Of a DNA stretch of 64,000 bases, positions 1,212 to 53,795 are shown piece after piece. A model generated the notes under the pieces. It saw nothing but the letters and a program-made list of their open reading frames with translations, was not told where the DNA came from and made no database searches. This DNA is from Candidatus Aminicenantes bacterium (lineage in GTDB: Bacteria > Acidobacteriota > Aminicenantia > Aminicenantales > UBA4085): contig CAWDOL010000006.1 in assembly GCA_963803915.1 (NCBI GenBank), positions 131,150 through 195,149 on the forward strand, given 5' to 3'. The translations under genes and the position numbers were made by a program. Numbering within the stretch: the stretch's first letter is position 1; each line of letters begins with the position of its first letter.

Positions 1212-3570
1212 TCTCGTCGGCCATGAGCCAGGCTTTTCCGCCCGCGCCGCTGTGGCCGGGCGGGCATAGGCCGATGGACTTCGCCGTCACCCGGATGTAG
1301 CGGGCCCGCACGCCCGCCGCCTCGATCCGGATATCGCGGCGCAGGGGCTCGCCGTCGCCGTCACCCGGTTCGAACGCGGCGGGGGCGGCCAGCGGCTTGT
1401 AGCTCGTGCCGTCCAGGGAGACGGCCGCTTCGACCGCGCGCGGGAAAAAGATCCAGCTCGACGTGTTCCGGAGAAAGCCGATCGTTACGGCGCCGATCTT
1501 GCGCGCCCGGCCCAGGTCGATGACCGCATCGAGGTCGTCGGCCTCGAATCCCTGCCAGCGTCCGTCGGTATGGGACCGGCTGCCCAGGAGCCCGTCCTCA
1601 AGCCCCAGCGGTCCGCCTCCGGCGTAGCGCGGCTTGAAGGCGGCCCGCAGGCTGGGGCTGCGGCCGAGGGCCAAGTGGGAGCGGAACCGCGTCTCGCTGA
1701 CGGGACCGCGCCTTGAGCCGTTCTCAAACACGGCGGCTTTGATCACGGCCGAGGTCTTGATCGTCAGGGGCGTCTTGTAAGCGGCCGCGTCGGCCTTGGG
1801 GTCCGACCCGTCCGTGGTATAGCGGATGTCGGGCCGATGGGCTTCGCTGCTCATGGCCAGGGCCAAGCCGCCCTCCGCCGCGAGGGCGGGCTGGAGCTTG
1901 ACGGCAAAGAGGCTGCGGGCGTAGTGGATACCCAGCTTGTCGTAGCGGCGAAGCTGGACGTTCAAGCGGCGCAGGAAGTCGTCCCAGTCGCGGCCCGCAG
2001 CGCTCGTCCAGCCCGCTTCGGCCATGGCCGCGATGCGCGGGAAGGTCATGTACTCGGCGTGCGAAGGTGTCGCGACATATTCCGTCCAGAGATTGCCCTG
2101 GGCGCCGATGATGAAGCGGCCTGCCTCGGGCGTCAAGGCCGCCGGCACGGGCTCGAAGGCGTAGACCTTGCTCAGAGGCAGGAAGCCGCCGATGCCCGGC
2201 GGCTCGAGGGCCGGGTCGCCCTGGTAGTAGTCGAAGTAGCAGTTCGAGGTCGGGGTCATGACCACCGGATGGCCGGCCTGGGCGGCGGCGATGCCGCCCT
2301 CGATGCCGCGCCAGGACATGACCGCGGCGTTGGGCGCCAGGCCGCCTTCCAGGATCTCGTCCCAGCCGATCAGAGTCCGGCCCCGGGAGTTGAGGAAGGC
2401 CTCGATGCGCCGGATGAACTAGCTCTGCAGCTCCTCCTCGTTCTTCAGCCCGGCCGCCTTGATCCGGGCCTGGCATTGGGGACAGACCTTCCAGGTGGAC
2501 TTGTCCACTTCGTCGCCGCCGATGTGGATGATCTTGCTCGGGAAGCAGCTCGATCACTTCGCTCAGGACGTCTTCCAGAAAGGCGAACGTCTCATCGTTG
2601 CCCGGGCAGTAGACGTCGTTGATCGGCCAGACGCCGCCGGGCGGCACGGTGAAGGGGCCGCCGGTGCAGGAGAGCTGGGGATAGGCGGCCAGGGCGGACA
2701 GGCAATGGCCGGGCATCTCGATCTCCGGGACCACGGTGATGTGCCGGCTCTCGGCGTAGGCCACGATCTCGCGGATGTCGTTCTGGGTGTAGAAGCCGCC
2801 TAGGTGGCCTTGTCGCCCGGTCCCTGAGGCGGCCGGCTGTTCCAGTGCTTGTCCTCGCGGTCGACCCGCCAGGCGCCGACCTCGGTCAGCCGGGGGTACT
2901 TCTTGATTTCGATCCGCCAGCCCTGGTCGTCCGTCAGGTGCCAGTGGAAGGTGTTCATCTTGTGCAGGGCCAGGTAGTCGAGATAGCGCTTGACGAACTC
3001 CTTGGGGAAGAAATGTCGCGAGACGTCAAGCAGCATGCCGCGCCAGGGCAGGCGGGGCTTGTCCTCGACCTTGACGCAAGGCAGGACGGCGGCGCCGCCC
3101 GCGGTGCCGGCCGCGCCGAAGGCCGCGGGGGGAAGAAGCTGGAGCAGCGTCTGGACGCCGTAGAACATTCCGGCCGCTTCCGGAGCGTCGATGGCGACGG
3201 CGGCGGGAGTGACCGAAAGGGCATAGCCCTCGGCCCCGAGATCTTTGCTCCCGGCGCGCCGAATCATGATCAGACCCTGCGCCTCGACGGGCGGCGCGGC
3301 CGAGACCGGGACGTCGAGCCCGAAGGCCGCGCGGAGGCGCTCGGCCAGGTAGCGGCCGGCGGACTCGGCCGGAAGGTCGCCCGCGGGCACCGCGATGCGG
3401 GAAGCCGAGGTGATGAGGAAGGAGCCGGACTGGCGGACGACCGAGACCGGCTTGGGGACAATGGAGATCTCCAAGCTCTGGGCCGGGACTTCGACCGGTC
3501 GCGGGCTTGCGCAAGCGGCAGCCAGTCCGAGAACGAGAAGGATGAGGGCGGGGGCGGATTTCGCGTTCAT
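1198..3570 (-). pseudogene. GH20 beta-N-acetylhexosaminidase with C-terminal F5/8-type-C (discoidin) domain; 2 frameshifts plus 1 in-frame TAG
   Basis: Start MNAKSAPALILLVLGLAAACAS (RBS GGAAAGGAG). GH20 motifs are present: RGMLLDVSRHFF, MNTFHWHLTDDQGWRIEIKKYP, GGFYTQNDIREIVAYAESRHITVVPEIEMPGH, KIIHIGGDEV. The frame breaks at 2800-2802 (GDKAT-ta-GGFYTQ, expected TAY Tyr codon) and at ~2538. A TAG at 2419-2421 sits where LQS-Y-FIRRIE is expected. Fragments: 2800-3570, ~2540-2790, 1198-2540. Confidence 0.85.
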
Positions 3571-3650
3571 GAAGGCTCCTTTCCCGCCGTCTTTATAACA
3601 CAAGTTCGGGAAGGTCGACCATCCGGAGTTTGGGGTAGAATGGTCGCATG

Positions 3651-4430
3651 GTGCGTCCTGACGCGATGAACGAGGAAGCCGGATGAAGGCCGAGCCGGGA
3701 GTCGCACGCCGCATCGTTCCAGCGGGTGGAAGTCCCGCCCGGGTAAGCGCCGGAGCACCCGGTAGCAGGCCACCGGCGACGGTCGAGAGGCCGCTCGCCG
3801 AAGCGTGGCGTCAAAAGCCTCTGCGGAGGGAGCAAGCCGACGGGCCGCAACATCAAGTGAACCTTGCAGCCTCGACACATTTACAATGGGGAAGCCGAGC
3901 CGCTCATGTCACGGCGAAGGCCACGTCCGCTGCGCGGGAGACCGGAGAGGGAAGCGCGGCGGGTTCCCCCGGGGTAGAGAGGGCGGCACGCGGGCAAGGA
4001 ACGGTGGGGAACAGGAGAGACCCGTCTGGGCGGTTCGAGTCGGGACAAGGCGAGCCGTATAAGCCGAAGGCGAAGTCGGCCGCTGCCCAGCGGGGGTCCG
4101 AGGGGGTCATAGTACCGAGGATGACCGTGCAACAGAACGCGGTCGGAGGGAAGGACCCCTGGGGCCGTTGTGGCAGTCGCGGAGGTAAGCGCGAGGGCAT
4201 GACCGGCAAGACCGGATCCAACAACCCCAGCGGGCGAAAACCCGTTGAAAAAGTGCGAGGACTCCAACGCTGCCTGTATGTCGCGGCCAAGCGGCAACCG
4301 GGACGCCGTTTTCATGCGTTATTCGACCGCATCTGCCGGGGTGACGTCCTGCAGGAGGCATGGAAGCGGGTCAAGCGGAACAAGGGCGCGGCGGGCGTCG
4401 ATGCCCAGACGCTGGCCGACGCGAAGCCGT
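3651..4430 (+). mobile_element. group II intron, 5' fragment (ribozyme 5' domains plus first ~75 codons of the intron-encoded RT/maturase); 3' part deleted
   Basis: Starts with the canonical GTGCG at 3651. About 550 nt of GC-rich structured non-coding sequence follows. Then ATG 4199: MTGKTGSNNPSGRKPVEKVRGLQRCLYVAAKRQPGRRFHALFDRICRGDVLQEAWKRVKRNKGAAGVDAQTLADA, the typical N-terminus of group II intron IEPs. Similarity stops at ~4425, before RT motifs 1-7. Confidence 0.7.
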
Positions 4431-5830: not shown

Positions 5831-5870
5831 GCCTGGCCGACGCTCACCGGCCGGCTCGCGGCAATGAGAT

Positions 5871-6048
5871 GGGGGACACCATACGCAATTCCCGATCTCG
5901 ATCCGTGTACTTTGGTAGCCAATTCGTAGATATTTGTTGTCAAAGGAGGGAAGACCCTGTCTGACGATGGGGGGCGGCATAAACCAATGGTCTTGTGGTG
6001 TTAACGTTTGTTGACAAAACAATTAGGGAGTTATGTATGGTGTCCCCC
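5871..6048 (+). mobile_element. MITE-like element, copy 1 (178 bp, ~27-bp terminal inverted repeats)
   Basis: Left end GGGGGACACCATACGCAATTCCCGA. Right end, reverse-complemented, GGGGGACACCATACATAACTCCCTA. The interior is low-GC and non-coding. It belongs to the same family as 9418-9597 and shares the flanks GAGAT / AATT. Confidence 0.6.
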
Positions 6049-6068
6049 AATTCTTGAAACTCGGCCTC

Positions 6069-9320: not shown

Positions 9321-9417
9321 GCCCCTTCTTCCTTCTCCGGTTGGATGGAGTCTCTTGTTTAAAGTCTATCGGGAATAAGTATTTTATCAGATGCGCCTCT
9401 CCTGCGCAACCGGAGAT

Positions 9418-9597
9418 GGGGGACACCATACATAATTCCCGAATACGGGTGGACAACGTAGGTGGTCAATTTGACGACTTTTGTAGACGGCGAAACGATG
9501 ACTAATCCTGTTATCATGGGGCGAAGCAATACCGGACGGCGTTTCTGTGTAAAATTTAGTTTACAAATGAATTCGGGAATTATGTATGGTGTCCCCC
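9418..9597 (+). mobile_element. MITE-like element, copy 2 (180 bp)
   Basis: Left end GGGGGACACCATACATAATTCCCGAAT. Right end ATTCGGGAATTATGTATGGTGTCCCCC, a near-perfect TIR. Same orientation and same GAGAT/AATT flanks as copy 1. The interior is AT-rich and only partly similar to copy 1. Confidence 0.65.
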
Positions 9598-9616
9598 AAT
9601 TATCTATAATGGATAG

Positions 9617-40667: not shown

Positions 40668-40800
40668 TTTTTTCCGCCGGCTGATATATTAGTCATGCCT
40701 CATGGTTCCCCAACCCGGTCGGACCAAATCAGCTCCGATTCTTCCCATCCGCCCGTCTCCGGACGGCCGACGAATCCACTTTCCCCCTCAAGGAGGCCTT

Positions 40801-43464
40801 ATGAAACGCTTGCCGCGGGCGACCGCCCTCGCTCTCATCCTGCTCCTGGGCTCGATGACGCTCATCGGCGCCCAAGCTCCACCGGCCTCGAAGGCGAACT
40901 ACGACCTGGCTTCCCGCTGGACGTCGGCCAAGGTCGGCAAGCTCGTCTTCGACGGCCAGGTCCAGCCCCGCTGGCTGGAGTCGGGCGACCGCTTCTGGTA
41001 TGCCTATGAGACGAGCCAGGGCCGCAAATGGTTTATCGTCGATCCGGCGGCCAAGACCCGCAAGCCGCTATTCGACAACGCCAAGATGGCCGCCCTGCTG
41101 ACCAAGGCCACCCTCTTCCCCTACGAGGCGCAGCATCTGCCGATCCGGACGATCAAGTTCATTAAGAAGGACACCGCCATCCGGTTTGACATCGAATATG
41201 CCAAAGACGCCGACGTCCGCGTCGGCGAGGTCCTGAAGAAGGTCGGCGACGTGGGCAAGGAGTTCGAGGACAAGGAGAAGGAGAAGGAAAAGCTCCAGGA
41301 CACCGAGAAGAAGGACCAGGACAAGAAGGACCTGGAGAAGAAGGAGGCCGACAAGCCCAAGGAGCCGGAGAGCAAGACCAAGAAGCTCTATTTCGAGTAC
41401 GAGCTGGCCTCCGGCAAGCTGACCATCCTCGAGGACTACAAGGCTCCCGAGACCCGGCCGCGCTGGGCTTCGGTCTCGCCCGACGAGAAGACGATCGTCT
41501 TCGGCCGCGGCTACAACCTCTACATGATGGACGCCGAGAGCTTCAAGAAGGCCTGGAAGAAGGCCGACGACAAGGAGGTCAAGGAAGTCCAGCTGACGAC
41601 CGACGGCGTGGAGTACTACAGCTACACCCGCGTGCTCTCCGACGAGGACAAGAAGACCTTCCAGAAGGACGAGAAGGACCGCAAGGACTACCGCGTTCCG
41701 GCGGCCGGGGTGATCTGGTCCAAGGACTCCAAGAGGTTCTCCATCGAGCGCGACGACGAGCGCAAGGTCGGCTCGCTGTGGGTCATCAACACGCTGTCCA
41801 ACCCGCGGCCGACGCTGGAGACCTACAAGTACGCCATGCCCGGCGAGGAGGCCCAGCCGCAGGCCGAGCTGTGGATCTGCGACGTGGCCTCCAAGGGCTT
41901 GGTCAAGGTCAAGGTCGACAAGTACAAGGACCAGACCTTCAGCGTCTATACCGCGCCGCGCAAGGCAGCCGACATGGAAAAGGACTATCCGCCGCCCGCC
42001 ACTTGGCTGGGCGACCGCTCCGACCTCCTCTACCTGGGCCGCCAGAGCCGCGACCTGCACCGCTATGACGTAAGCACGGTCGATGTCGAGAAGGGCGAAG
42101 TCAAGCCGCTCTTCGAGGAGGTCCTCAACACCTACGTCGACGTCCAGCCGCCGCGGCTCGTAGACGGCGGCAAGGAGATCGTGTGGTGGTCCGAGCGGGA
42201 CGGTTGGGGCCATTACTACCTGTACGACGGCGCGACGGGCAAGCTCAAGGGACAGATCACCTCGGGCGAGTTCGTCGGCGTCGGCATCCAGCATTTGGAC
42301 GAAAAGGCCCGCGTCCTCTATTTCAACGCCTGTGGCAGGGAGCCGGGCGAGGACCCCTACTACGCCCATCTCTACCGGGTCAACCTGGACGGCTCGGGGC
42401 TCAAGCTCCTCAACCCGGGCGACGGCAACCACTCCGCCGCGATGAACGAGGCCGGCCGCTGGTTCATAGACGGCTTCAGCCGGGTCGACCAAGGGCCCAA
42501 GTCCGAGCTCCGCGACGCGCTGGGCAACCTGATCATGCCGCTCGAGACGACGGACATCTCCGCCCTCGTGGCGGCCGGATTCAAGTATCCCGAGACCTTC
42601 ACCTGCAAGGCCGATGATGGGGTGGTCGACCTCTACGGCGTGATCTACAAGCCTTTCGACTTCGATCCGCAGAAGAAGTACCCGGTCATTCTCTACGTTT
42701 ACCCCGGTCCGCAGACCGAGAGCGTCTCCAAGACCTTCGTGCCGCGCAGCGCCAGCCAGCACCTGGCCCAGTTCGGATTCATCGTGGTCGAGGTCGGCAA
42801 CCGCGGCGGCCACCCGCAGCGCTCCAAGTGGTACCACACCTACGGCTACGGCAACCTGCGCGACTACGGCCTGGCCGACAAGAAGCGGACCATCGAATGG
42901 CTGGGGCTCAAGTACCCCTACGTCGACACGGACCGGGTCGGCATCTTCGGCCACAGCGGCGGCGGGTTCATGACGGCCGCGGCGCTGTGCGTCTATCCCG
43001 ACTTCTTCAAGGTCGGCGTCTCCTCCTCCGGCAACCACGAGAACAACATCTACAACCGCTGGTGGAGCGAGAAGCACCACGGGGTCAAGGAAGTCGTGGA
43101 CGACAAGGGTGCCGTCAAGTTCGAGTATGCCATCGAAAAGAACTCCGAGGTGGCCAAAAACCTCAAGGGCCACCTGCTCCTGACCACGGGCGACATCGAC
43201 AATAACGTCCACCCGGGCAACACCTACCGGATGGCCAACGCCCTGATTCGGGCCAACAAGCGCTTCGACTTCTTCCTCTTCCCCGGCCAGCGCCACGGCT
43301 ACGCGGATATGAGCGACTATTGGACCTGGATCCGGGCCGACTACTTCTGCAAATGGCTGCTGGGCGACTTCTCCCAGTCGGTCGACATGTGGGAGCTGAA
43401 CCGCGATAAGGAGCAGTCCGGGGCCAAGGCCGCGGCCGCGACGGGCGGAGGCATCCGCCGCTGA
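40801..43464 (+). CDS. S9B/DPP-IV-family serine peptidase (beta-propeller + alpha/beta hydrolase), secreted
   Basis: AAGGAGG RBS and a signal peptide (MKRLPRATALALILLLGSMTLIGAQA). DPPIV_N-like propeller text. Catalytic GIFGHSGGGFMTAAAL, then ...TTGDIDNNVHP (Asp) and ...GQRHGY (His). There is a Lys/Glu-rich low-complexity insert at ~41230-41400. Confidence 0.85.
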   Translation: MKRLPRATALALILLLGSMTLIGAQAPPASKANYDLASRWTSAKVGKLVFDGQVQPRWLESGDRFWYAYETSQGRKWFIVDPAAKTRKPLFDNAKMAALLTKATLFPYEAQHLPIRTIKFIKKDTAIRFDIEYAKDADVRVGEVLKKVGDVGKEFEDKEKEKEKLQDTEKKDQDKKDLEKKEADKPKEPESKTKKLYFEYELASGKLTILEDYKAPETRPRWASVSPDEKTIVFGRGYNLYMMDAESFKKAWKKADDKEVKEVQLTTDGVEYYSYTRVLSDEDKKTFQKDEKDRKDYRVPAAGVIWSKDSKRFSIERDDERKVGSLWVINTLSNPRPTLETYKYAMPGEEAQPQAELWICDVASKGLVKVKVDKYKDQTFSVYTAPRKAADMEKDYPPPATWLGDRSDLLYLGRQSRDLHRYDVSTVDVEKGEVKPLFEEVLNTYVDVQPPRLVDGGKEIVWWSERDGWGHYYLYDGATGKLKGQITSGEFVGVGIQHLDEKARVLYFNACGREPGEDPYYAHLYRVNLDGSGLKLLNPGDGNHSAAMNEAGRWFIDGFSRVDQGPKSELRDALGNLIMPLETTDISALVAAGFKYPETFTCKADDGVVDLYGVIYKPFDFDPQKKYPVILYVYPGPQTESVSKTFVPRSASQHLAQFGFIVVEVGNRGGHPQRSKWYHTYGYGNLRDYGLADKKRTIEWLGLKYPYVDTDRVGIFGHSGGGFMTAAALCVYPDFFKVGVSSSGNHENNIYNRWWSEKHHGVKEVVDDKGAVKFEYAIEKNSEVAKNLKGHLLLTTGDIDNNVHPGNTYRMANALIRANKRFDFFLFPGQRHGYADMSDYWTWIRADYFCKWLLGDFSQSVDMWELNRDKEQSGAKAAAATGGGIRR

Positions 43465-43489
43465 GAGGGAACCGAATAAGGCCTTTCGA

Positions 43490-43517
43490 AGCCCGGCCGG
43501 CGCAAGCCGGCCGGGCT
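43490..43517 (+). terminator. candidate intrinsic terminator after the S9 peptidase gene
   Basis: Perfect 12-bp GC stem AGCCCGGCCGGC-GCAA-GCCGGCCGGGCT, followed by CTCCATTT. The U-tract is weak. Confidence 0.45.
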
Positions 43518-43567
43518 CTCCATTTGGCCGGGGAAGACGGGATCGACCCCGTCGGGAGGCCGTCGAC

Positions 43568-44032
43568 ATGACAGAGCCGAGACGGGAGGACCGGGGGCGG
43601 TACAGGGTTCGCGACTACAAGCCGGGGGATTTCCCGGCTGTTGAGAACCTCTGGCGCGAGGCGGGCATGGCCTCGCCCCAGCGAGCCGACACAGCCGAGG
43701 TCGTCGACCGGACGCTGGGCCACGAAGGGGCGCGGCTCCTTATCCTTGAGGATGGCGATTCGGGCCTGCTTGTCGGCACGTCGTGGCTGACCTGCGACGG
43801 ACGGCGGCTCCACCTCCATCATTTCGCCATTACCGGGCGGCTTCGCGGCTTGGGGCTATCCAAGATCCTGCTCGAAGCCTCGCTCCGCCACGCCAAGGAC
43901 GCCGGTATCCAGGTCAAGCTGGAAGTCCATAAGGCCAACACCGCCGCCGTCGGCCTCTACCGCAAGGCGGGCTTCGAGACGATCGGGGATTATGAGGTCT
44001 ACATCATCCGTGATCTTACCAGGATTATTTGA
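43568..44032 (+). CDS. GNAT-family N-acetyltransferase
   Basis: 154 aa. The motif A region HLHHFAITGRLRGLGLSKILLEASLRHAKDAG fits the R/Q-x-x-G-x-G/A pattern. NTAAVGLYRKAGFE is also present. Confidence 0.8.
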   Translation: MTEPRREDRGRYRVRDYKPGDFPAVENLWREAGMASPQRADTAEVVDRTLGHEGARLLILEDGDSGLLVGTSWLTCDGRRLHLHHFAITGRLRGLGLSKILLEASLRHAKDAGIQVKLEVHKANTAAVGLYRKAGFETIGDYEVYIIRDLTRII

Positions 44033-46064
44033 AGGCTTCGTCCCGGTTGTGACGCCGGATCCGGCTCCGCCAGGCTCGACGGGCAGAGGCGCCCGCATCC
44101 GTCGGCGCAGCGAAGATCAGCCCGATTGAACCGCCCTCAAGGGACGCGGTGACATCGAAGCGCGAGCCGCGGCGCGTTCTACCGCTCGCGGCATAGGCCA
44201 GAGCATCCCGCCAGATATCCCGTTTTGCTTCCCCGGGCAGGCGGGACCAGGCCGCAGGCGGCTCCCTGCGGGGCCCGAGGACGAGCCCCTCCGGGAACAT
44301 CCCGGCGAACGCGGCCGAGAGGGATGCCCCATCGCCCATCCCAGGGCCGTTTTTTCCCGCCATCCGATCGGCCAACCAGCCCGCTGCCGCGGATCCATCG
44401 TCGAAAGCCTCCGACACCCGGAGCCGATCGATCAGGCCCATCCCTTCGGCCGACAGCCAACGGTTTGAGAGCCCGGATGGAGGCGGCGAAGCGAACCAGA
44501 CTAGGCGTCCCGGCCCGGCCAAGGCGACGCGACCGCTTGTTCCCAAGCGCCGGGCCGCGGATTCCGCGATCCTGGCGTGGGCCCAGCGGTCTTCCTCCCG
44601 CCAGCGCTTGGGATCGTCGAGTCCCCGATGCAAGGAACCCGGCGCGAATTCGGTCCGTCCGATGACGACCGGACCTGCAACCCGGCGCAGGGCTTCAACC
44701 CAGTCGGGGAACGGCATGGGCATCTTCAGCCGGCCGCCGTCCCGTACATTCCCGGCGCGAGATCGGATTGCCAGCCAGGCCGATGCGGCCAGGAATCCGG
44801 CGACGACGGCGCCCGCGGCGGCTGCTTCGTCCGGGAGGAGGAGAGCGGCAGAGGCGGCGCCGAGCAGGGTGAGTCCTCCGGCCGCGATCAACCGGCCATA
44901 GGATCGGGAGGCGAACGCCCTCATTTCCAGGCCGGCCGCCATGGAACGGACGAGGAAGAAAACGGCCGAACCGGCCATCAGGCCGGACGTCAGTCGTCCG
45001 AAGAAGGCCAGCCCAAGCCCAAGCGATCCGGCCCAGGCGGCCAGGCCGGCCGCGGTCACAACGAGCCCCAGTTTGCGCTCGAACGACTCCCGCAGCCGTC
45101 GGAGCAGCGGGACGTCCAGGCGCTTGAGGTCGAAATAGAAGAGCTGGGTCCAGTCGAAGCCCGCCCGGACGAGGGGCGAAGCGGCCAGGACAAAGGCGGC
45201 CGCGGCAGGCAGGCCGCTTCGTCCGGCGGCCAGAAGGGACAAGGGCAGGATCGCGTCCATCCGCATCAGGGCGAAGGCCAGCCCCGCGGCAAAAGCCTCG
45301 GAGCGTCCCCGGTCGGGGCCGGGCAATCCCCCCGTCGCGGGGGCGGAAGGCCTCGGTCGGATCCCGAGGTGACGATAAGCCCTGGAGGTGAAGACCAGGG
45401 ACAAGACCACCGAGACGGAGGCGGAGACAAGCGAGGCGGCGGGCAAGGCCCACGGTCCCACGATCGGCCAGAGCGCCAGGATGGCGCCGAATCCCAGAAC
45501 CTCCAGGCCGGCCAGGGACCAGAAAGGCCGGTACACGCGGCGCACGGCAAAGACGCCGGAATGATAGCCGCGGACGTACGGCTCGGCAGCTAAGCGGAGA
45601 GCCACCACGAAGATGAATAGTTCGAGGGGCCCGAACCCATGTCCGGTCAGGGCGCGCCCGATCGTAAAAGCCGCGCCGGCGCCGGCGGCGAGCAGGCCGA
45701 GGCGCACGGCAAGGGCGAGCGTGCGGCCGATCAGGCCCTCCGCCCGGCGCGGCTTGCCGGCCGCAAATGCTTCGCGGACATCCTCGCGCATCGGTTCCAG
45801 AAAGCCCCACCAGAAGGAACCGAGCAAAAGCGCCGCCGCCTCAGCGGCCAGCACGATACGGAATTCACCGGCCGAGAAGACGCGGTAGGCGATCAATATC
45901 CTGGCCGCGTGCAGGAGTCCCGCGACCGCGGTTCGGGCGGCGAAGAAGCGCAGACGGTGGAGGGCATAGAGGCCGAATCGTCCGCCGATCAGGGCGTCCT
46001 CGATCCCGGGCGCGCGCTCGGTCCGGCGCGCGGCGCGATCAAGCCAGGCCCGGACGGCGTCCAT
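44025..46064 (-). CDS. 679-aa polytopic membrane protein with ~200-aa soluble C-terminal domain; RT-coupled partner of unknown function
   Basis: The ATG at 46064 overlaps the RT stop (TGATG, 46062-46066). It starts MDAVRAWLDRAARR, inside ORF 44025-46493. There are ~10-12 hydrophobic helices in residues 30-470, then a charged soluble region (NVRDGGRLKMPMPFPDWVEALRR...RSRIRRHNRDEAFK). I recognise no motif. Confidence 0.7.
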   Translation of the reverse strand: MDAVRAWLDRAARRTERAPGIEDALIGGRFGLYALHRLRFFAARTAVAGLLHAARILIAYRVFSAGEFRIVLAAEAAALLLGSFWWGFLEPMREDVREAFAAGKPRRAEGLIGRTLALAVRLGLLAAGAGAAFTIGRALTGHGFGPLELFIFVVALRLAAEPYVRGYHSGVFAVRRVYRPFWSLAGLEVLGFGAILALWPIVGPWALPAASLVSASVSVVLSLVFTSRAYRHLGIRPRPSAPATGGLPGPDRGRSEAFAAGLAFALMRMDAILPLSLLAAGRSGLPAAAAFVLAASPLVRAGFDWTQLFYFDLKRLDVPLLRRLRESFERKLGLVVTAAGLAAWAGSLGLGLAFFGRLTSGLMAGSAVFFLVRSMAAGLEMRAFASRSYGRLIAAGGLTLLGAASAALLLPDEAAAAGAVVAGFLAASAWLAIRSRAGNVRDGGRLKMPMPFPDWVEALRRVAGPVVIGRTEFAPGSLHRGLDDPKRWREEDRWAHARIAESAARRLGTSGRVALAGPGRLVWFASPPPSGLSNRWLSAEGMGLIDRLRVSEAFDDGSAAAGWLADRMAGKNGPGMGDGASLSAAFAGMFPEGLVLGPRREPPAAWSRLPGEAKRDIWRDALAYAASGRTRRGSRFDVTASLEGGSIGLIFAAPTDAGASARRAWRSRIRRHNRDEAFK

Positions 46065-47389
46065 CAGCCGCGCCTCCGGCCGCGGTTCCTCTGCTGGAGG
46101 AGCGAGGCCAGGCCCCAGGCCCTGCGGATGCGGCGATAGGGCGTAAACCGGAAGGCCCGGGGCCCGGCGATGCCGGACGCGGCGTGCGCGGCGATGCGGG
46201 CGATCAGAAAGTCCAGGTGGCGGAGGTGCGGGCGGCTGGTCGCCAGGCGCCGCAGGATATCGGCCGACCGCTGGCGGAGGGGGGCGGGATCGGGGCGAAG
46301 GACGCGGTTGATGACCGTGCAAACGGCGCGGCCGCGCTTGTCGGGCTCGGCCTCGCCCGAGGTGCGGGCCGTCCTGGCCGCCCGGTCCGCCAGGTCGCGA
46401 AGGAGCGCGCGCGAGGGCTCCCGGCCGAGGGCGATCGTCCCGTCGGCGCCGACATCCGTGCCGAGGAAGGGGACGGCGGCTGTTCCCTTCCAAACCGCTC
46501 CGGCGGGGGAGGGGCGGGCGGCCCTGTTGAGGAACAGATCGCTGCCCTTCTCCGCCTTCAGCTTCAGCTCAAGCCCGGCGGCTTCTGCCTCAATGATACG
46601 GGCGGCTTCCAGGACCGGGCCGGGCTCGGGGTGGGCGAAAAGGATGTCGTCGGAGTAGCGGGCGTAAAATCCGCCCGCGATCGAGGCGAGCCTCCGGTCC
46701 AGCTCATGAAGGTAGAGGTTGAAGAGAACGCAGGCGATCGGTTGTCCCGTCGGAACGCCGCGCATGAGCCGGAAGGGGCCTCCCTGCGGCCGGATGACGA
46801 GTGGCCGGACGACTTCCTCCAGCGTCGGCCAGGCGGCGGAACCGGCGGACTGGCCGTCGAAGAGCCCGGCCAGCTGGCTCCAGAGGGGAGAGCCGGGGTG
46901 GACCGGGATGGAGTCGGTGTAGGCATCGATGTCGCGCCGCAGCACATGAAGACCCCGTGTGCGCGGGTCGGGATGTTCGCGCTCCCGGGCCCGGACATAG
47001 GCCGCGAACCCGCGGATCGCGTCGGCCCAGGAAACCCCCTTGCGGTAGGAGAAGAGGCATGAGGAGCGCAGGGGCCGGCCGGCTTCCTCTATGACTTCCG
47101 CCGCGACGGCGTGGACCAGCATATCCGTCAACCTGAAGGAATAGACGTCGCGCCGCCGGCCGGCGATCCGGATGCTGCGCACGCGTCCCGGCTCGAAAGC
47201 GTAGCTTCCTCTGCCTGCGGCGCGGGCCAGGCGGCGGGCGATGCCCCTCTGGCCGTCGAAGAGGGCGTCGATCGAGACTCCGTCCTGGCGCAGCGTCCGC
47301 CGCGCGGCCGTGAAGAGGGTGCGGTCAAACAAACGTTCGATCGCCCTGCGGAAGCGGCGAGGGTCCGAAAGAGCGCGTTGCAAGTCCAT
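46064..47389 (-). CDS. reverse transcriptase (orphan; not intron-, retron-, DGR- or CRISPR-type by motif or context)
   Basis: 441 aa, intact. RT motifs: VRSIRIAGRRRDVYSFRLTDMLVHAVAAEV (1-2), FSYRKGVSWADAI (3), VLRRDIDAYTDSIP (A), GVPTGQPIACVLFNLYLHELD (B), ARYSDDILF (C, YxDD), LELKLKAEKG (D), VPFLGTDV (E). A ~130-aa Arg-rich C-terminal extension follows. Confidence 0.85.
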   Translation of the reverse strand: MDLQRALSDPRRFRRAIERLFDRTLFTAARRTLRQDGVSIDALFDGQRGIARRLARAAGRGSYAFEPGRVRSIRIAGRRRDVYSFRLTDMLVHAVAAEVIEEAGRPLRSSCLFSYRKGVSWADAIRGFAAYVRAREREHPDPRTRGLHVLRRDIDAYTDSIPVHPGSPLWSQLAGLFDGQSAGSAAWPTLEEVVRPLVIRPQGGPFRLMRGVPTGQPIACVLFNLYLHELDRRLASIAGGFYARYSDDILFAHPEPGPVLEAARIIEAEAAGLELKLKAEKGSDLFLNRAARPSPAGAVWKGTAAVPFLGTDVGADGTIALGREPSRALLRDLADRAARTARTSGEAEPDKRGRAVCTVINRVLRPDPAPLRQRSADILRRLATSRPHLRHLDFLIARIAAHAASGIAGPRAFRFTPYRRIRRAWGLASLLQQRNRGRRRG

Positions 47390-47405
47390 GGCGGGACGCG
47401 GTTTC

Positions 47406-47603
47406 GACCGGCGGCCGGGCCGGGGTCCGGCGTGTCGTTGGCTTTTTCTCTTCGGTCAGGGATCGGGTTGCGCCCGGCTGGGGCAGGGTTCCCCTTTCCG
47501 CGACCGCGCTTTTCCGGCGACGGCAAGACCGCAATCTCTGCCGGCGCCGCGGTCGCCGCGACGTCATCGCGGGGTCCGCCGGGCCCCGGCTCGGCCTCCG
47601 GTC
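47406..47603 (-). ncRNA. candidate RT-associated structured ncRNA / leader closed by 27-nt inverted arms
   Basis: Forward 47406-47432 (GACCGGCGGCCGGGCCGGGGTCCGGCG) versus the reverse complement of 47577-47603 (GACCGGAGGCCGAGCCGGGGCCCGGCG) match 24/27. The arms enclose 144 nt with several local hairpins. The 5' arm begins 7 nt after a -10 box. The 3' arm ends 16 nt before the RT ATG, and there is no SD. Confidence 0.4.
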
Positions 47604-47609
47604 GGAGCC

Positions 47610-47638
47610 ATTGTCGATCATGCCGGGGGGCTTGTCAA
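47610..47638 (-). promoter_or_regulatory. sigma70-like promoter for the ncRNA-RT-membrane protein unit
   Basis: Minus strand: TTGACA (47638-47633), a 17-nt spacer and GACAAT (47615-47610). Confidence 0.45.
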
Positions 47639-47663
47639 TTCGCCGCGTAGGCGGGTTTGGCGA

Positions 47664-47700: not shown

Positions 47701-48531
47701 ATGTCGGACACCGATTTCCTCTTGCGGCTGCTCCTGTCTTTCCTGGTCGGGGGCGGCTGGATCGCCGCCGCGACGATGGCCGCCGACCGCCTCGGCAGCC
47801 GCGTGGGCGGCTTCCTGAGCGGTTTGCCCTCGACGGTCGTGGTCACCTTCTTCTTCATCGGACTGGTCCAGGGGACGGATGCCGCGGCACGGGCCACGAC
47901 CGTTTTCCCCATGGCCTTCGCCGTCACGGGCGTCTTTCTGTTGGTTTTCGCCGCTTGCTCGGGCCGCGGCTTTGCCGCGGGCTTCGCGGCCGGGCTGACG
48001 GTTTGGGTGGCGCTCTCCGCCTGTATCCTGGTGCTCAAGCCGGAGGGCTTCGGTTTTTCCCTGGCCGTCTATGTCCTGGTTTTGGCCGCTGCGATAGGAC
48101 TGACCGGATCGGTCATCCGCCTGCCCCAACCCCAGCACGGCGGCGGCCGCCACTCCCTCCTCCAGGTGACGGCCCGGGCTTTTTTCGGCGGTCTGATCAT
48201 CGTCGTTGCGGTGCTGTTGAGCCGGGTGGGCGGACCCGTTTTCGGGGGCGTCTTCGCCGGGTTCCCGGCCGTCTTCGTCTCGACCCTGGTCATCGGCAAC
48301 CACGAGCACGGGCTGGACTTCGCCCGGGCCATCGTCCGGCCGATGCTCCTGACCGGGATGATCACCATCGGCATCTACGGCATCGGTGTGCGCCTTCTTT
48401 ACCCGGCCTGCGGCTTAATCCTCGGCACTCTGCTCTCGTTCCTCCTGTCGCTCCTGGCCGGGGTCTTCGTCTTCCTCGTTCTGAAACCGCACCCCGCCCT
48501 CCCGCCGGCTCCCGTTAAGCGCACCGGCTGA
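47701..48531 (+). CDS. polytopic membrane protein made of two homologous ~130-aa halves (DUF3147-like)
   Basis: MSDTDFLLRLLLSFLVGGGWIAAA... The halves align: RLGSRVGGFLSGLPSTVVVTFFFIG versus RVGGPVFGGVFAGFPAVFVSTLVIG. There are about 8 TM helices. Confidence 0.6.
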   Translation: MSDTDFLLRLLLSFLVGGGWIAAATMAADRLGSRVGGFLSGLPSTVVVTFFFIGLVQGTDAAARATTVFPMAFAVTGVFLLVFAACSGRGFAAGFAAGLTVWVALSACILVLKPEGFGFSLAVYVLVLAAAIGLTGSVIRLPQPQHGGGRHSLLQVTARAFFGGLIIVVAVLLSRVGGPVFGGVFAGFPAVFVSTLVIGNHEHGLDFARAIVRPMLLTGMITIGIYGIGVRLLYPACGLILGTLLSFLLSLLAGVFVFLVLKPHPALPPAPVKRTG

Positions 48532-48573: not shown

Positions 48574-48631
48574 GTCGTACATTCGCGGCGCGAAATCCCG
48601 ATTTTCAAATCGGGGTCGCGAGCGGGTTTAT
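48574..48631 (+). repeat. nested-hairpin intergenic repeat, copy C1 (short form)
   Basis: GTCGTACATTC-GCGGCGCG-AAA-TCCCGATT-TTCA-AATCGGGG-TCGCGAGC-GGGTTTAT. Directly abuts copy C2. Confidence 0.65.
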
Positions 48632-48738
48632 ACGTTCGCGGCGTAAAACCCCGATTTTTGAATCGGGGTTAAGCGCCGCTCAGTATTACCCTGAATAGAC
48701 CCCGGGCTTTAGCCCGGGGTGTCTAACGGGTTAATTGA
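48632..48738 (+). repeat. nested-hairpin intergenic repeat, copy C2 (long form)
   Basis: ACGTTC-GCGGCG-TAAAA-CCCCGATT-TTTG-AATCGGGG-TTAA-GCGCCGC-TCAGTATTACCC-[ACCCCGGGC-TTT-AGCCCGGGGT]-GTCTAACGGGTTAATTGA. Confidence 0.7.
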
Positions 48739-51589: not shown

Positions 51590-51677
51590 CACCACCCCCG
51601 CGCCATTTCTCCTTGTCGAGCCGTCGATCTTCTCGACGTCTTGGGTGCATATCCGCCTAACCGGAAAGGAGCTCATC

Positions 51678-52981
51678 ATGTCCGCTTTCGAACGCTTCGC
51701 CTCGCGGGAAGCCCGCCATCTCCCCGAGGCCTATTACAATCTCAAGGCCGATCTGCCGACCCAACCCCTCCCCGCCCTTCACCCGGGGACGCGCGAGCCG
51801 CTGGCCGCCGCCGATCTGGAGCCGGTCTTTTCGCGGGGCTTCATCGCCCATGAAACGACCCTGGAGCGCTTCGTTCCCATCCCCGCCGCCGTTCGCGAGG
51901 CCTATGCCGCCTTCCGCCCGACGCCTCTTGTGTACGCCGCGGGCCTGCGCGCGGCCTTGGCCACACCGGCCCACATCTTCTACAAGTACGAGGGCGCGGG
52001 GCCGATGGGCAGCCACAAGGGCAACACGGCGCTGGCGCAGGCCTGGCTGGCCGCCCAGGAGGGCATCGCCACCCTGGTCACGGAGACCGGGGCCGGCCAG
52101 TGGGGCAGCGCCCTGGCCCACGCCGGCGCCCGCTTCGGCGTCGAGGTCAGGGTCTTCATGGTCCGGGTCAGCTACCGCCAGAAGCCGGGCCGCAGGATTC
52201 TCATGGAGATGTTCGGGGCCAAGGTAACCGAGAGCCCGAGCCCCGAGACCGCTTTCGGCCGCGCTCTTTACGAAGTCGATCCCGACCATCCCGGCAGCCT
52301 GGGCATCGCCATCTCCGAAGCCATGGAGACGGCGCTCAGGGGGGTGAACTGCCGCTACTCCCTCGGCTCGGTGCTCGACGCGGTGCTTCTCCACCAGACC
52401 GTCATCGGCCTCGAGGCAGAAAGCCAGATGGCGGTCGTGGGCGCGCGTCCCGACGTCGTTATCGGCTGCGTCGGGGGCGGCTCCAACTTCGGCGGCCTGG
52501 CCTTCCCCTTCGTCCGTCGGCGGCTGACCGAGGGAGTGCCGATCCGCTTCGTCGCCGTGGAGCCCGAGGCCTGCCCTTCCCTGACCAAGGGCGAGTTCCG
52601 CTACGACCATGGGGACAGCGCCGGGCTGACCCCGCTCCTCCCCATGCACACCCTGGGCAAGGATTTCATCCCGGCCCCCATCCACGCCGGCGGGCTTCGC
52701 TATCACGGGATGTCCCCGCTGGTCAGCCACCTGGTGGCCGGGGGAGTGGTGGCCCCGGTCGCCTGCCCACAGGAGAAAGCCTTCGAGGCCGCCCGGCTCT
52801 TCTTCGAGACCGAGGGCGTTCTGCCGGCGCCGGAGTCCGCCCACGCGGTGGCGGCGGCCGTGGATGAGGCCCTGGCCGCCAAAGCGTCCGGCGAGGAGCG
52901 GGTCATCCTCTTCAATCTCTCGGGCACGGCTTCCTGGACGTCAACGCCTACGCCGCCTGTGGGCGAGATTCTCTCGTCTAA
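51678..52981 (+). pseudogene. trpB: TrpB-like (TrpB2) PLP-dependent tryptophan synthase beta-type enzyme; single frameshift near the 3' end
   Basis: GGAAAGGAG RBS. PLP-lysine region GAGPMGSHKGNTALAQAW, ETGAGQWGSALA, and glycine loop GCVGGGSNFGGLAFPF. At 52921-52923 GGG appears where GGGG would restore ...ILFNLSGHGFLDVNAYAACGRDSLV* (stop 52979-52981). Confidence 0.85.
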
Positions 52982-53043
52982 CCGAGGTCGTCGATGCTTC
53001 GGATTCCTCCCGCGCGAAGCTATAATGGCGCCAGGAGGCCGCC

Positions 53044-53795
53044 ATGAAGACCATCAGCCCGAAGCCCGCCGACGTCGCCGCCGACATCATCGCCCGGCTG
53101 GAGAGCGGGGGCGATCCCGTCCAGGCCGCGGGCGCCCATCGCTACTTCCGCGAGGAGGTGGACTTCTACGGTTGGACTACGTCCCGTCTGCGCGCCCTGG
53201 TCGCCGGAGATCCAGGCCGCAGTTCGCGCCTCCTGGACGCTGGCCGAGGCCCTGGCGCTGGCCGAGAAGCTCCTGCCCCGCGACAAGTTCGAGGCCAAGG
53301 CGGCCGGGATCCTTCTTCTGCTCGAGTTCAAGAAGGACTTCACGCCGGCCCTGTTCGGGACGATCAAGTCCTGGCTGGCCAAGGACTACTGCGCCAACTG
53401 GGCTTCCGTCGACAGCCTCTGCCCGGAGGGGCTGGGCTGGCTGCTCGAGAGGCACCCCGCGCCTGGCCGACGAAATCCTGGGCTGGACGTCCCACAAGAA
53501 CCGCTGGGTCAGGCGCGGCGCCGTCGTGGCCTTCATCACCCTGGCCAGGCGCGGAAAGCTCCTGGATCAGGCCTACGCCGTGGCCGAGGCGATGCTCGGA
53601 ACCGAGGACGACCTGCTCCAGAAGGCGACGGGCTGGATGCTGCGGGAGGCGGGCAAGACGGACATGGCCCGGCTGGAGCGCTTTCTGCTCCGGCACGGTC
53701 CGGACATCCCCCGGACCTCTCTTCGCTACGCCATCGAGCGGTTTCCCGAGGCCAAGCGCAAGGCGCTCCTGGCCGCGACCAAGATCAAGCGCTGA
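53044..53795 (+). pseudogene. DNA alkylation repair protein (AlkD-like HEAT-repeat family), 2 frameshifts
   Basis: Three frames carry the text: MKTISPKPADVAADIIARLESGGDPVQAAGAHRYFREEVDFYGW...; ...WTLAEALALAEKLLPRDKFEAKAAGILLLLEF...KSWLAKDYCANWASVDSLC...; ...GWTSHKNRWVRRGAVVAFI...LLQKATGWMLREAGK...LRYAIERFPE. Confidence 0.75.

Follow-up and report, generated by a model that had tools for sequence, protein, structure and literature searches.

A Candidate Three-Part Module of a Structured RNA, a Reverse Transcriptase and a MOP-Like Membrane Protein in Candidatus Aminicenantes

We analyzed a 64,000-nt stretch of DNA from a Candidatus Aminicenantes bacterium (assembly GCA_963803915.1, contig CAWDOL010000006.1, positions 131,150 to 195,149 of the forward strand), referred to below as the window and numbered from its first letter. 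Directly upstream of a reverse transcriptase (RT) gene on the minus strand lies a region that, with a probability we put at roughly 70%, encodes a ~200-nt noncoding RNA (ncRNA) dedicated to the downstream RT within a three-part module of ncRNA, RT and a membrane protein with a fold like that of the multidrug/oligosaccharidyl-lipid/polysaccharide (MOP) superfamily. In 57 further loci this RNA is found beside members of the same RT family, and it covaries heavily, in agreement with an earlier sequence-only reading of the window (made from the letters without database searches), which had proposed a structured ncRNA that works with the RT. The module is apparently an undescribed RNA-to-DNA copying system related to the antiviral systems built on defense-associated reverse transcriptases (DRTs).

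Promoter and Inverted Repeat Upstream of the RT Gene

The interval between the divergent DUF3147 gene (start at 47701, plus strand) and the RT start codon (47389) holds, on the minus strand, a promoter followed by a repeat arm. Consensus scanning placed a -35 hexamer TTGACA at 47633-47638 and a -10 hexamer GACAAT at 47610-47615, with a 17-nt spacer between them. This predicted ncRNA/RT promoter (47638-47610), sigma-70-like and already pointed out in the sequence-only reading, matches 10 of 12 consensus positions, and two such sites were found in the 1-kb region against 0.0 expected. Because the -10 hexamer ends one base ahead of a 33-nt arm that forms the 5' strand of the closing helix P1, transcription is expected to start within P1 or at its base; a start 5-9 nt past the -10 hexamer falls at the beginning of the 27-nt arm of that reading, where it had been predicted. 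In homologous loci (numbered with the prefix L), a TTGACAAG...GACAATGG arrangement likewise precedes P1 (L001, L002, and L004), and -10-like hexamers stand 7-10 nt ahead of P1 in L003, L066, L071, and L074. From the position of the promoter and its conservation we infer that transcription starts from TTGACA-17-GACAAT at the base of P1.

The arms at 47400-47432 and 47577-47609 are complementary at 28 of 33 positions (85%), with 144 nt between them, and the 27-nt arms reported earlier are the inner part of this longer repeat. We scanned the window exhaustively for inverted repeats of 33 nt without gaps, requiring 28 or more Watson-Crick matches and allowing loops up to 250 nt. Only two were found, the ncRNA arms and an element at 9414-9601 that resembles a miniature inverted-repeat transposable element (MITE), and ten block-wise dinucleotide shuffles gave none of that grade (a repeat search seeded with 8-nt exact matches misses the ncRNA repeat, whose exact seeds are shorter). 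The repeat is thus rare in the window and absent from the shuffles, and it amounts to more than the fortuitous complementarity that the sequence-only reading had allowed for in a GC-rich genome. The fold of the minus strand at 47390-47610 (221 nt), a check proposed with that reading, has a predicted energy of -120.7 kcal/mol (z = -3.4), and none of 200 dinucleotide shuffles was as stable.

Conservation and Covariation of the RNA

Among homologues the arms differ in sequence, yet their complementarity is kept, which argues for selection on RNA pairing and not for copies of a repeat. To the 41 distinct homologues aligned with MAFFT (alignment A3, variable region excised), the structure fits with 89.4% of cells paired, vs. 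37-45% when the 3' partners were slid by 1-3 columns. Changes on both sides were seen at 32 of the 41 pairs in A3, and the covariation score was 0.507 against 0.222 ± 0.009 after shuffling (0 of 500 shuffles as high). RNAalifold, applied to 18 full-length RNAs of the window's clade, independently gave the helices P1, P2, and P3, with 25 of 41 pairs compensated. We concluded that these three core helices are real, as shown by the strong covariation across the aligned sequences.

A covariance model of the RNA (R1; 191 positions, 43 pairs) matched the window RNA over its full length at 125.3 bits (E = 1.6e-19). This was the sole match in the window by cmsearch, and the 57 related loci gave full-length matches to the same model. 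The model-based alignment, which includes the RNAs from Chloroflexota, has 90.8% of cells paired and double changes at 37 of 43 pairs; in six Chloroflexota RNAs an A-U pair of the P3 cap is replaced by G-C. R1 misses the relatives in Legionella and Chlamydiales, in which a helix closing the RNA and a hairpin looped by C-UGCG-G were recognized by eye. Folding of the Legionella gratiana RNA (z = -3.8) confirms the closing helix, together with one hairpin like P2 and another capped by UGCG. Rfam searches, at the gathering threshold or at E <= 10, placed no family over the ncRNA; the best match, snoZ206 at 22.6 bits against a gathering threshold of 50, is noise.

Architecture of the RNA

To the outer limits of P1, the whole structured ncRNA measures ~210 nt (47400-47609, minus strand), of which the covariance model matches 47411-47598. 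The order in the family, 5' to 3', is P1 5' strand, G-CUCU, P2, P3, a variable region, AAC-N-ACA and P1 3' strand. In the window the P1 5' strand lies at 47577-47609 and the P1 3' strand at 47400-47432, ending 10 nt before the RT ATG. Changes on both sides were found at 19 of the 20 modeled P1 pairs among the 41 homologues; the arm pairing on which the sequence-only reading depended is thus conserved in homologous loci.

The junction J1/2 (47573-47576) reads GACC in the window and G-CUCU in the family, with column counts in A3 of G 41/41 (position 47576), C 35, U 37, C 41/41, and U 36. The G that directly follows the 5' arm, pointed out in the sequence-only reading, is therefore invariant in all 41 distinct homologues. 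P2 (47556-47572, CCGCGAU-GAC-GUCGCGG) has seven pairs, five of them with double changes (GCGGC/GCCGC vs. GCAAC/GUUGC, for example), and is exactly the hairpin previously drawn as CCGCGA-UGACG-UCGCGG. The long hairpin P3 (47516-47548) has 14 pairs, of which 8-10 show double changes, and its register in the window is GGCGCCGG-CAGAGAU-UGCG-GUCUUG-CCGUCGCC. A second hairpin had also been predicted here; it is real, but the conserved register is that of P3 and differs from the one proposed. The P3 cap CAGAGAU-UGCG-GUCUUG (47524-47540) is nearly invariant family-wide, the family form being CAGAGAC-UGCG-GUCUUG with one bulged G. A pattern search with the 16-mer AGAGAYYGCGGTCTTG, which represents the cap, gave 48 loci; in 47 it lies on the RT strand.

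Downstream of P3, RNAalifold on 13 RNAs of group A, the window's clade, predicted a P4/P5 domain (47458-47494) peculiar to that group, in which GGGGA...UCCCU surrounds UGCCC-CAGCC-GGGCG. Its support is moderate, since the pairs are mostly invariant and few covary. It is followed by an A-rich single-stranded linker (47433-47457) whose last bases, AACGACA (47433-47439), abut the 5' side of the P1 3' strand. The purine-rich, single-stranded-looking stretch noticed earlier lies here; it is unpaired in the consensus, and the motif at its end is the invariant AAC-N-ACA of the family (column counts of 41 in A3: A34 A37 C36 N A40 C40 A36, followed by C40 G39 of P1). The only invariant single-stranded elements adjoin the P1 junction: G-CUCU comes directly after the 5' strand, and AAC-N-ACA directly before the 3' strand.

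The variable region contains tandem repeats, significant against shuffles, in 21 of 45 distinct homologous RNAs, with periods of 8, 11, 12, 23, and 26-28 nt. In L017 (4540-4830), 28-nt units stand in several tandem copies with a 67-nt match at the 28-nt period; group C (L081, L076, L107, and L096) has 11-nt CCAGGTCCTCA-type units in two blocks, and group B (L007-L010, L073, L075, L085, and L087) has 23-nt CCATGCCGCCTGCGGCCG units. No tandem repeats were found in the window RNA and its clade, where a GGGG...CCCC helix with a small hairpin is present instead. The repeats may be alternative templates or multimerization sites.

The sequence-only reading had listed no open reading frame (ORF) in this region. 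A mechanical 98-aa ORF does overlap the ncRNA (47325-47621, minus strand), so that statement does not hold as worded; open frames are not in excess of shuffles, and the region evolves by compensatory changes. A hidden never-ending ORF of the DRT2 kind was considered and rejected, the stop-free frames between the arms being no more numerous than in dinucleotide shuffles (5 in the window vs. 4.25), a comparison that says nothing when the sequence is GC-rich. Between the P1 strands (47433-47576) the window RNA has 144 nt, and this length is divisible by 3 in 15 of 22 ncRNAs. By distinct lengths the count is 7 of 13, and the excess is thus probably due to relatedness.

The Reverse Transcriptase and Its Family

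The RT gene (46064-47389, minus strand) encodes 441 aa with a Pfam RVT_1 match, and its AlphaFold2 model (pLDDT 88) has a long helical C-terminal domain. The active site reads FYARYSDD, and D153, D247, and D248 are invariant among relatives; from its sequence the enzyme looks catalytically intact. Close homologues of ~445 aa number more than 230 in metagenomes, and a profile search of 1.84 billion representative proteins (E <= 1e-30) gave 467 clusters at 50% identity. A survey that took a single genome for each species yielded 26 full-length relatives, in Acidobacteriota/Aminicenantes, Binatia, Margulisiibacteriota, Chloroflexota, Verrucomicrobiota, Pseudomonadota (including L. gratiana and Legionella longbeachae), and Chlamydiales. 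Members of the family occur in at least 8 phyla.

Pfam and PDB sequence searches of the RT returned only generic RT-core matches, and the NCBIfam models for Drt2 (41.3 bits against a cut-off of 390), Drt3a (28.7 against 200), and group II introns (TIGR04416, 38.5 against 300) all scored the window RT below their cut-offs. In PADLOC the top models for the window RT were a generic RT model (65 bits), Drt9 (50 bits), a Cas1-RT model, and UG26 (46 bits), UG denoting the unknown groups of RTs. The generic model is also first or second for each of the relatives, among which Class 2 UG groups lead (UG26, Drt9, UG39, UG17, Drt2, UG27, and UG4); UG26 reached 106 bits with L013 (model positions 26-391 of 398) and 83 bits with L024. 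The top Foldseek match of the RT model was the RT of the DRT9 RT-ncRNA complex (9vma_A, E = 5e-16, query-normalized TM-score 0.65), followed by GsI-IIC, G2L4, and DRT2, and RTs of diversity-generating retroelements (DGRs) and long interspersed nuclear elements also ranked ahead of retron RTs. The RT fits no named family, and profiles and predicted fold suggest the Class 2 UG/DRT enzymes as its nearest relatives, with DRT9 closest by fold and UG26 by profile.

Two other kinds of retroelement were tried and rejected for this RT. For a group II intron, Rfam shows no intron domain near 44-48 kb, and TIGR04416 is below its cut-off as given above. For a DGR, the fold comparison puts DRT9, group II, and DRT2 ahead of the DGR RT; neither a template/variable repeat pair nor an Avd-like gene came up in the repeat and tblastn searches near the module, a point that was not followed further. 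The sole group II match in the window, Rfam D1-D4-4 at 3720-3855 (plus strand, 93 bits, E = 3e-19), belongs to a group II intron ~40 kb away that is unrelated to the RT studied here.

The Membrane-Protein Partner

The gene downstream of the RT (44025-46067, minus strand) encodes a 680-aa protein whose start overlaps the RT stop as ATGA (46064-46067), an overlap that suggests translational coupling of the two proteins. The partner has no matches in Pfam, PADLOC, or NCBIfam. Its AlphaFold2 model (pLDDT 84) consists of ~440 N-terminal aa of membrane helices and a C-terminal alpha/beta domain of ~240 aa. Foldseek matched it to WzxE (9g9n_A, target-normalized TM-score 0.64, E = 3e-5) and to MATE and MurJ proteins. 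In the PDB, 35 chains were matched at E <= 1e-3, and the matches listed are all MOP members with target-normalized TM-scores of 0.45-0.64, with no Pfam sequence match. The model thus points to a MOP-superfamily (Wzx/MATE/MurJ)-like fold for the N-terminal part. A profile search with the C-terminal domain found no credible match among PDB sequences (best E = 0.045) or in Pfam. By tblastn the partner adjoins the RT in all 26 full-length genome loci, so that the RT and the MOP-like protein form an obligate gene pair.

The loci of L. gratiana and L. longbeachae have an additional gene between the RT and the MOP-like gene (L023, 6322-7449; same place in L025). The L023 gene codes for an Rce1-like CAAX protease of the Abi/CPBP type joined to a cyclic-nucleotide-binding domain, and a GGDEF-EAL protein is found upstream in that locus.

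Genomic Context

In the window the module has housekeeping-like neighbors, among them a DPP-IV peptidase, a GNAT acetyltransferase, the DUF3147 protein, a histidine kinase/response regulator, and a pyridoxal phosphate (PLP) enzyme with a DNA-alkylation-repair domain. In L146 and L148, whose RTs are 62-69% identical to the window RT (69% in one, 62% in the other), the module sits between the same neighbors, a DPP-IV-type peptidase and GNAT protein on one side and the PLP enzyme and DNA-alkylation-repair protein on the other (40702-44032 and 51645-53795 in the window); the module has therefore been vertically inherited in the window's lineage. One of these two loci has a type I restriction-modification system 4 kb from the module. 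The patchy spread across many phyla suggests horizontal transfer at a deeper level.

Two other repeats in the window were noted. The MITE-like element of ~180 nt is present in two copies, 5870-6049 and 9417-9598 (the latter appearing as 9414-9601 in the inverted-repeat scan), and is bounded by near-perfect terminal inverted repeats TGGGGGACACCATAC(A/G)(T/C)AATTCCC, whose arms match over 28 nt (100%) in one copy and over 24 nt (88%) in the second. Directly past the DUF3147 gene, at 48585-48679, a 32-nt inverted repeat (81%) holds two copies of the palindrome CCCGATTT(T/TT)(C/G)AA(A)TCGGGG and is probably a bidirectional terminator.

Proposed Mechanism

The ncRNA is probably both the scaffold and the template partner of the RT. 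P1 pairs the RNA ends and encloses P2, P3, and a clade-specific domain, a fold demonstrated by covariation, and the RT would bind the P1/P3 scaffold. By analogy with the Class 2 UG/DRT enzymes closest to this RT (DRT9, DRT10, DRT3a, and DRT2), the RT may then start on, and copy, the single-stranded AAC-N-ACA(CG) beside P1, where the phased AC units would permit repeated realignment and yield a short-repeat, GT-rich DNA. We put forward AAC-N-ACA as the specific template only tentatively, and with clearly less confidence than the general role of the RNA. As in DRT9 and DRT10, a protein hydroxyl would probably serve as the primer. The DNA product, or an RT-DNA adduct, could be recognized by the membrane protein by way of its cytoplasmic C-terminal domain; the protein would act as an effector that causes membrane damage or growth arrest upon phage infection. 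A defense role of the module is plausible by the same analogy; the gene context lends it no support.

Several points weigh against this mechanism. RNA binding, templating, priming, and defense are all argued from related systems. The RT lies outside every named UG group, with best scores against UG26 of 46 bits for the window RT and 106 bits for a relative, so that the designation "Class 2-like" reflects a ranking of weak matches together with predicted fold similarity, and group II intron RTs are nearly as good by fold. The stable helix sits 3' of the candidate template, whereas the essential boundary stem-loop of DRT10 sits 5'. Longer A-B-A' duplications, in which the terminal motif would recur in the 28 nt upstream of it, were not in excess (141 observed vs. 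145.8 expected, p = 0.8). To our knowledge, a MOP-fold transporter is not among the known defense effectors. The context is unlike a defense island, and the housekeeping synteny in the window's lineage is unusually stable for a putative defense module. Finally, a tblastn search with the RT against 72,556 plasmid and 50,697 phage records gave no match.

Alternative Explanations

The RNA could be a retron-like msr-msd. P1 would then be the a1/a2 stem, and the invariant G would be the branching G that primes complementary DNA (cDNA) synthesis through its 2'-OH to give branched multicopy single-stranded DNA; the cDNA would start just 5' of the P1 3' strand, and the membrane protein would be the retron effector. 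Much of the RNA has this appearance. Terminal inverted repeats close it (P1 of 33 nt, 85% complementary and covarying), the G directly past the 5' arm is found in 41 of 41 homologues, the conserved residues adjoin the P1 junction, which is the site of priming and initiation in retrons, and in most loci the RNA precedes the RT; accessory effectors are also common in retrons. The protein speaks otherwise. Retron RT models are at noise level, with PADLOC retron models at 26 bits or less in the YxDD region only and the NCBIfam models retron_St85 and Ec67 at 24.7 and 17.9 bits against cut-offs of 235 and 450, respectively. Retron RTs rank 30th or lower by fold, and they measure ~300 aa, vs. 441 aa with a long helical C-terminal domain for the present RT. 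Moreover, the RNA lies downstream of both genes in seven loci, and the stretch beside the 3' arm is single-stranded and has no long msd-type hairpin. We consider a retron unlikely.

Alternatively, the RNA could be a cis-acting 5' leader (a riboswitch, an attenuator, or an autoregulatory RT-binding site) that controls the operon and has no role as a template. In the window and in 49 of the 57 loci, it does lie directly upstream of the RT on the same strand, at a median distance of 36 nt; no terminator-like site separates it from the RT gene on the RT strand, and the P1 3' strand, which ends 10 nt before the ATG, could occlude ribosome access. However, among these 49 RNAs the distance to the start codon ranges between 11 and 165 nt, no Rfam riboswitch or leader family matches, and related RT families are known to use adjacent RNAs as templates. 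The position in the remaining loci also speaks against it. In 7 of the 57 (the Chloroflexota-type L011, L012, L014, L016, L018, L019, and L094), the RNA directly follows the membrane gene, ~2.2 kb after the RT, and carries the cap AGGGAC-NNNG-GUCCUG, a compensated version of AGAGAC...GUCUUG. In L006 it is on the opposite strand (786-981, minus; RT at 3007-4350, plus), with an unrelated 596-aa ORF (1062-2852) between the two. Cis action is impossible from either position, and a purely regulatory leader is accordingly improbable as an explanation of the family. Since the RNA keeps its structure and its link to the gene pair while position and strand shift, it behaves as a separate functional component, which fits a partner RNA of the RT family and not merely a 5' leader.

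The module might also serve a purpose other than abortive infection. The product that the RT makes from AAC-N-ACA, whether short-repeat DNA or a protein-DNA or RNA-DNA adduct, would in that case be exported or anchored at the membrane by the MOP-fold partner, which has a dedicated cytoplasmic domain, as an RT-driven export or display of nucleic acid. MOP-fold relatives include lipid-linked-oligosaccharide flippases and drug exporters, and the stable housekeeping synteny together with the absence from the searched plasmid and phage records would fit a standing cellular role. We give this export reading little weight next to a DRT-like partner RNA with an effector protein.

Chance complementarity in GC-rich DNA (~70% GC locally) or the terminal inverted repeats of a MITE, such as the other long inverted repeat at 9414-9601, is effectively refuted as the origin of the arms, which are single copy in the window, have no counterpart in the 10 shuffles, and diverge but stay complementary while the inner helices covary too.

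Significance

The RT family, its RNA, and the pairing of the RT with a MOP-fold protein are absent from PADLOC 2.0, NCBIfam 20, and Rfam 15, and we found them undescribed in the searchable literature (open-access papers and bioRxiv to mid-2026; a description elsewhere is possible). They would add a large and deep further RT family with its own covarying ncRNA and a predicted MOP-fold membrane partner. DRT2, DRT3, DRT9, and DRT10 each revealed a new mode of DNA synthesis, among them de novo genes, homopolymers, and telomerase-like repeats, and Class 2 UG RTs have been proposed as bacterial relatives of telomerase. If the product here is templated repeat DNA, the family would provide a data point on the evolution of repeat-addition RTs; if the transporter-like partner handles that product, this would be an output of a kind new among bacterial RTs. 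Experiments have precise handles in the ncRNA model, the invariant cap, and the AAC-N-ACA motif, and the members in L. longbeachae and L. gratiana bring the system within reach in culturable bacteria.

Comparison With Known RT-ncRNA Systems

Class 2 UG RTs make ncRNA-templated products, and every characterized Class 2 system copies an adjacent ncRNA (PMC13174585); in a published phylogeny they group with telomerase reverse transcriptase (TERT) (PMC12632851). The ncRNA is upstream of the RT in DRT2 and DRT9 (PMC11100668, PMC12483538) and downstream of the protein genes in DRT3 (PMC13174585), as in the Chloroflexota loci described here.

DRT9 (UG28 RT) is the best fold match to the present RT, Drt9 is the second or third best PADLOC profile, and a membrane protein (SLATT) sometimes accompanies DRT9. 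The sequence identity is ~15%, however, and the Drt9 profile reaches only 50-78 bits, so the present RT does not belong to DRT9. A universally conserved poly-U tract serves as the DRT9 template; the present RNA has no equivalent of it, and the present system has an obligatory 680-aa partner with a predicted MOP fold.

DRT10 (UG17) is likewise tripartite, with an RT, a structured ncRNA, and the membrane effector SLATT (PMC12632851). Its ncRNA forms a basal stem (SL1) from its 5' and 3' ends (10.64898/2026.06.29.735271), which bears smaller stem-loops as P1 does here (PMC12632851; 10.64898/2026.06.29.735271). It also uses a short A-B-A' template in a single-stranded segment (PMC12632851), with A/A' microhomologies of 2-4 nt that AAC-N-ACA resembles. 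The RT_UG17 profile is weak against the present RTs (34-69 bits), the SLATT protein has 2-3 transmembrane helices in place of the ~12-14 helices and soluble domain of the MOP-like protein, the template varies among DRT10 homologues whereas AAC-N-ACA is invariant, and the stable helix is 3' of the motif here and 5' in DRT10.

The template of DRT3a (UG3) is ACACAC (PMC13174585), close to the single-stranded AC-repeat motif of the present RNA, which reads AACACAC in L015. DRT3 includes a further RT, DRT3b, and lacks a membrane protein. Drt3a profiles reach 57 bits at best, and the motif here is AAC-N-ACA and not pure (AC)3.

UG26 is an uncharacterized Class 2 group of UG/Abi (abortive infection) RTs (Mestre et al. 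2022, PMC9226505), for which no ncRNA is described in the accessible literature. It is the top named RT profile for several members of the family, with near full-length alignments, but the scores are far under the level of group members (46 bits for the window RT), and some UG26 loci are reported with a YcjD-like endonuclease and not a membrane protein.

With retrons the module shares terminal inverted repeats, a conserved G past the 5' arm, an RNA upstream of the RT, and three parts including an effector; the present RT is not of the retron clade, it is ~130 aa longer, and the position of the RNA is not fixed. Telomerase RNA and TERT offer a distant analogy only, in that both involve a structured RNA in which a short repeat template, a candidate one here, stands beside a helix.

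The sequence-only reading had left the choice between a retron-like and a DRT-like arrangement open. Of the two, the DRT-like model is favored by the Class 2 UG profiles and the predicted DRT9 fold, and the retron-like one has RT models far below their cut-offs. We concluded that the module most likely represents a new RNA family with an unprecedented partner protein, within the DRT-type RT-ncRNA systems.

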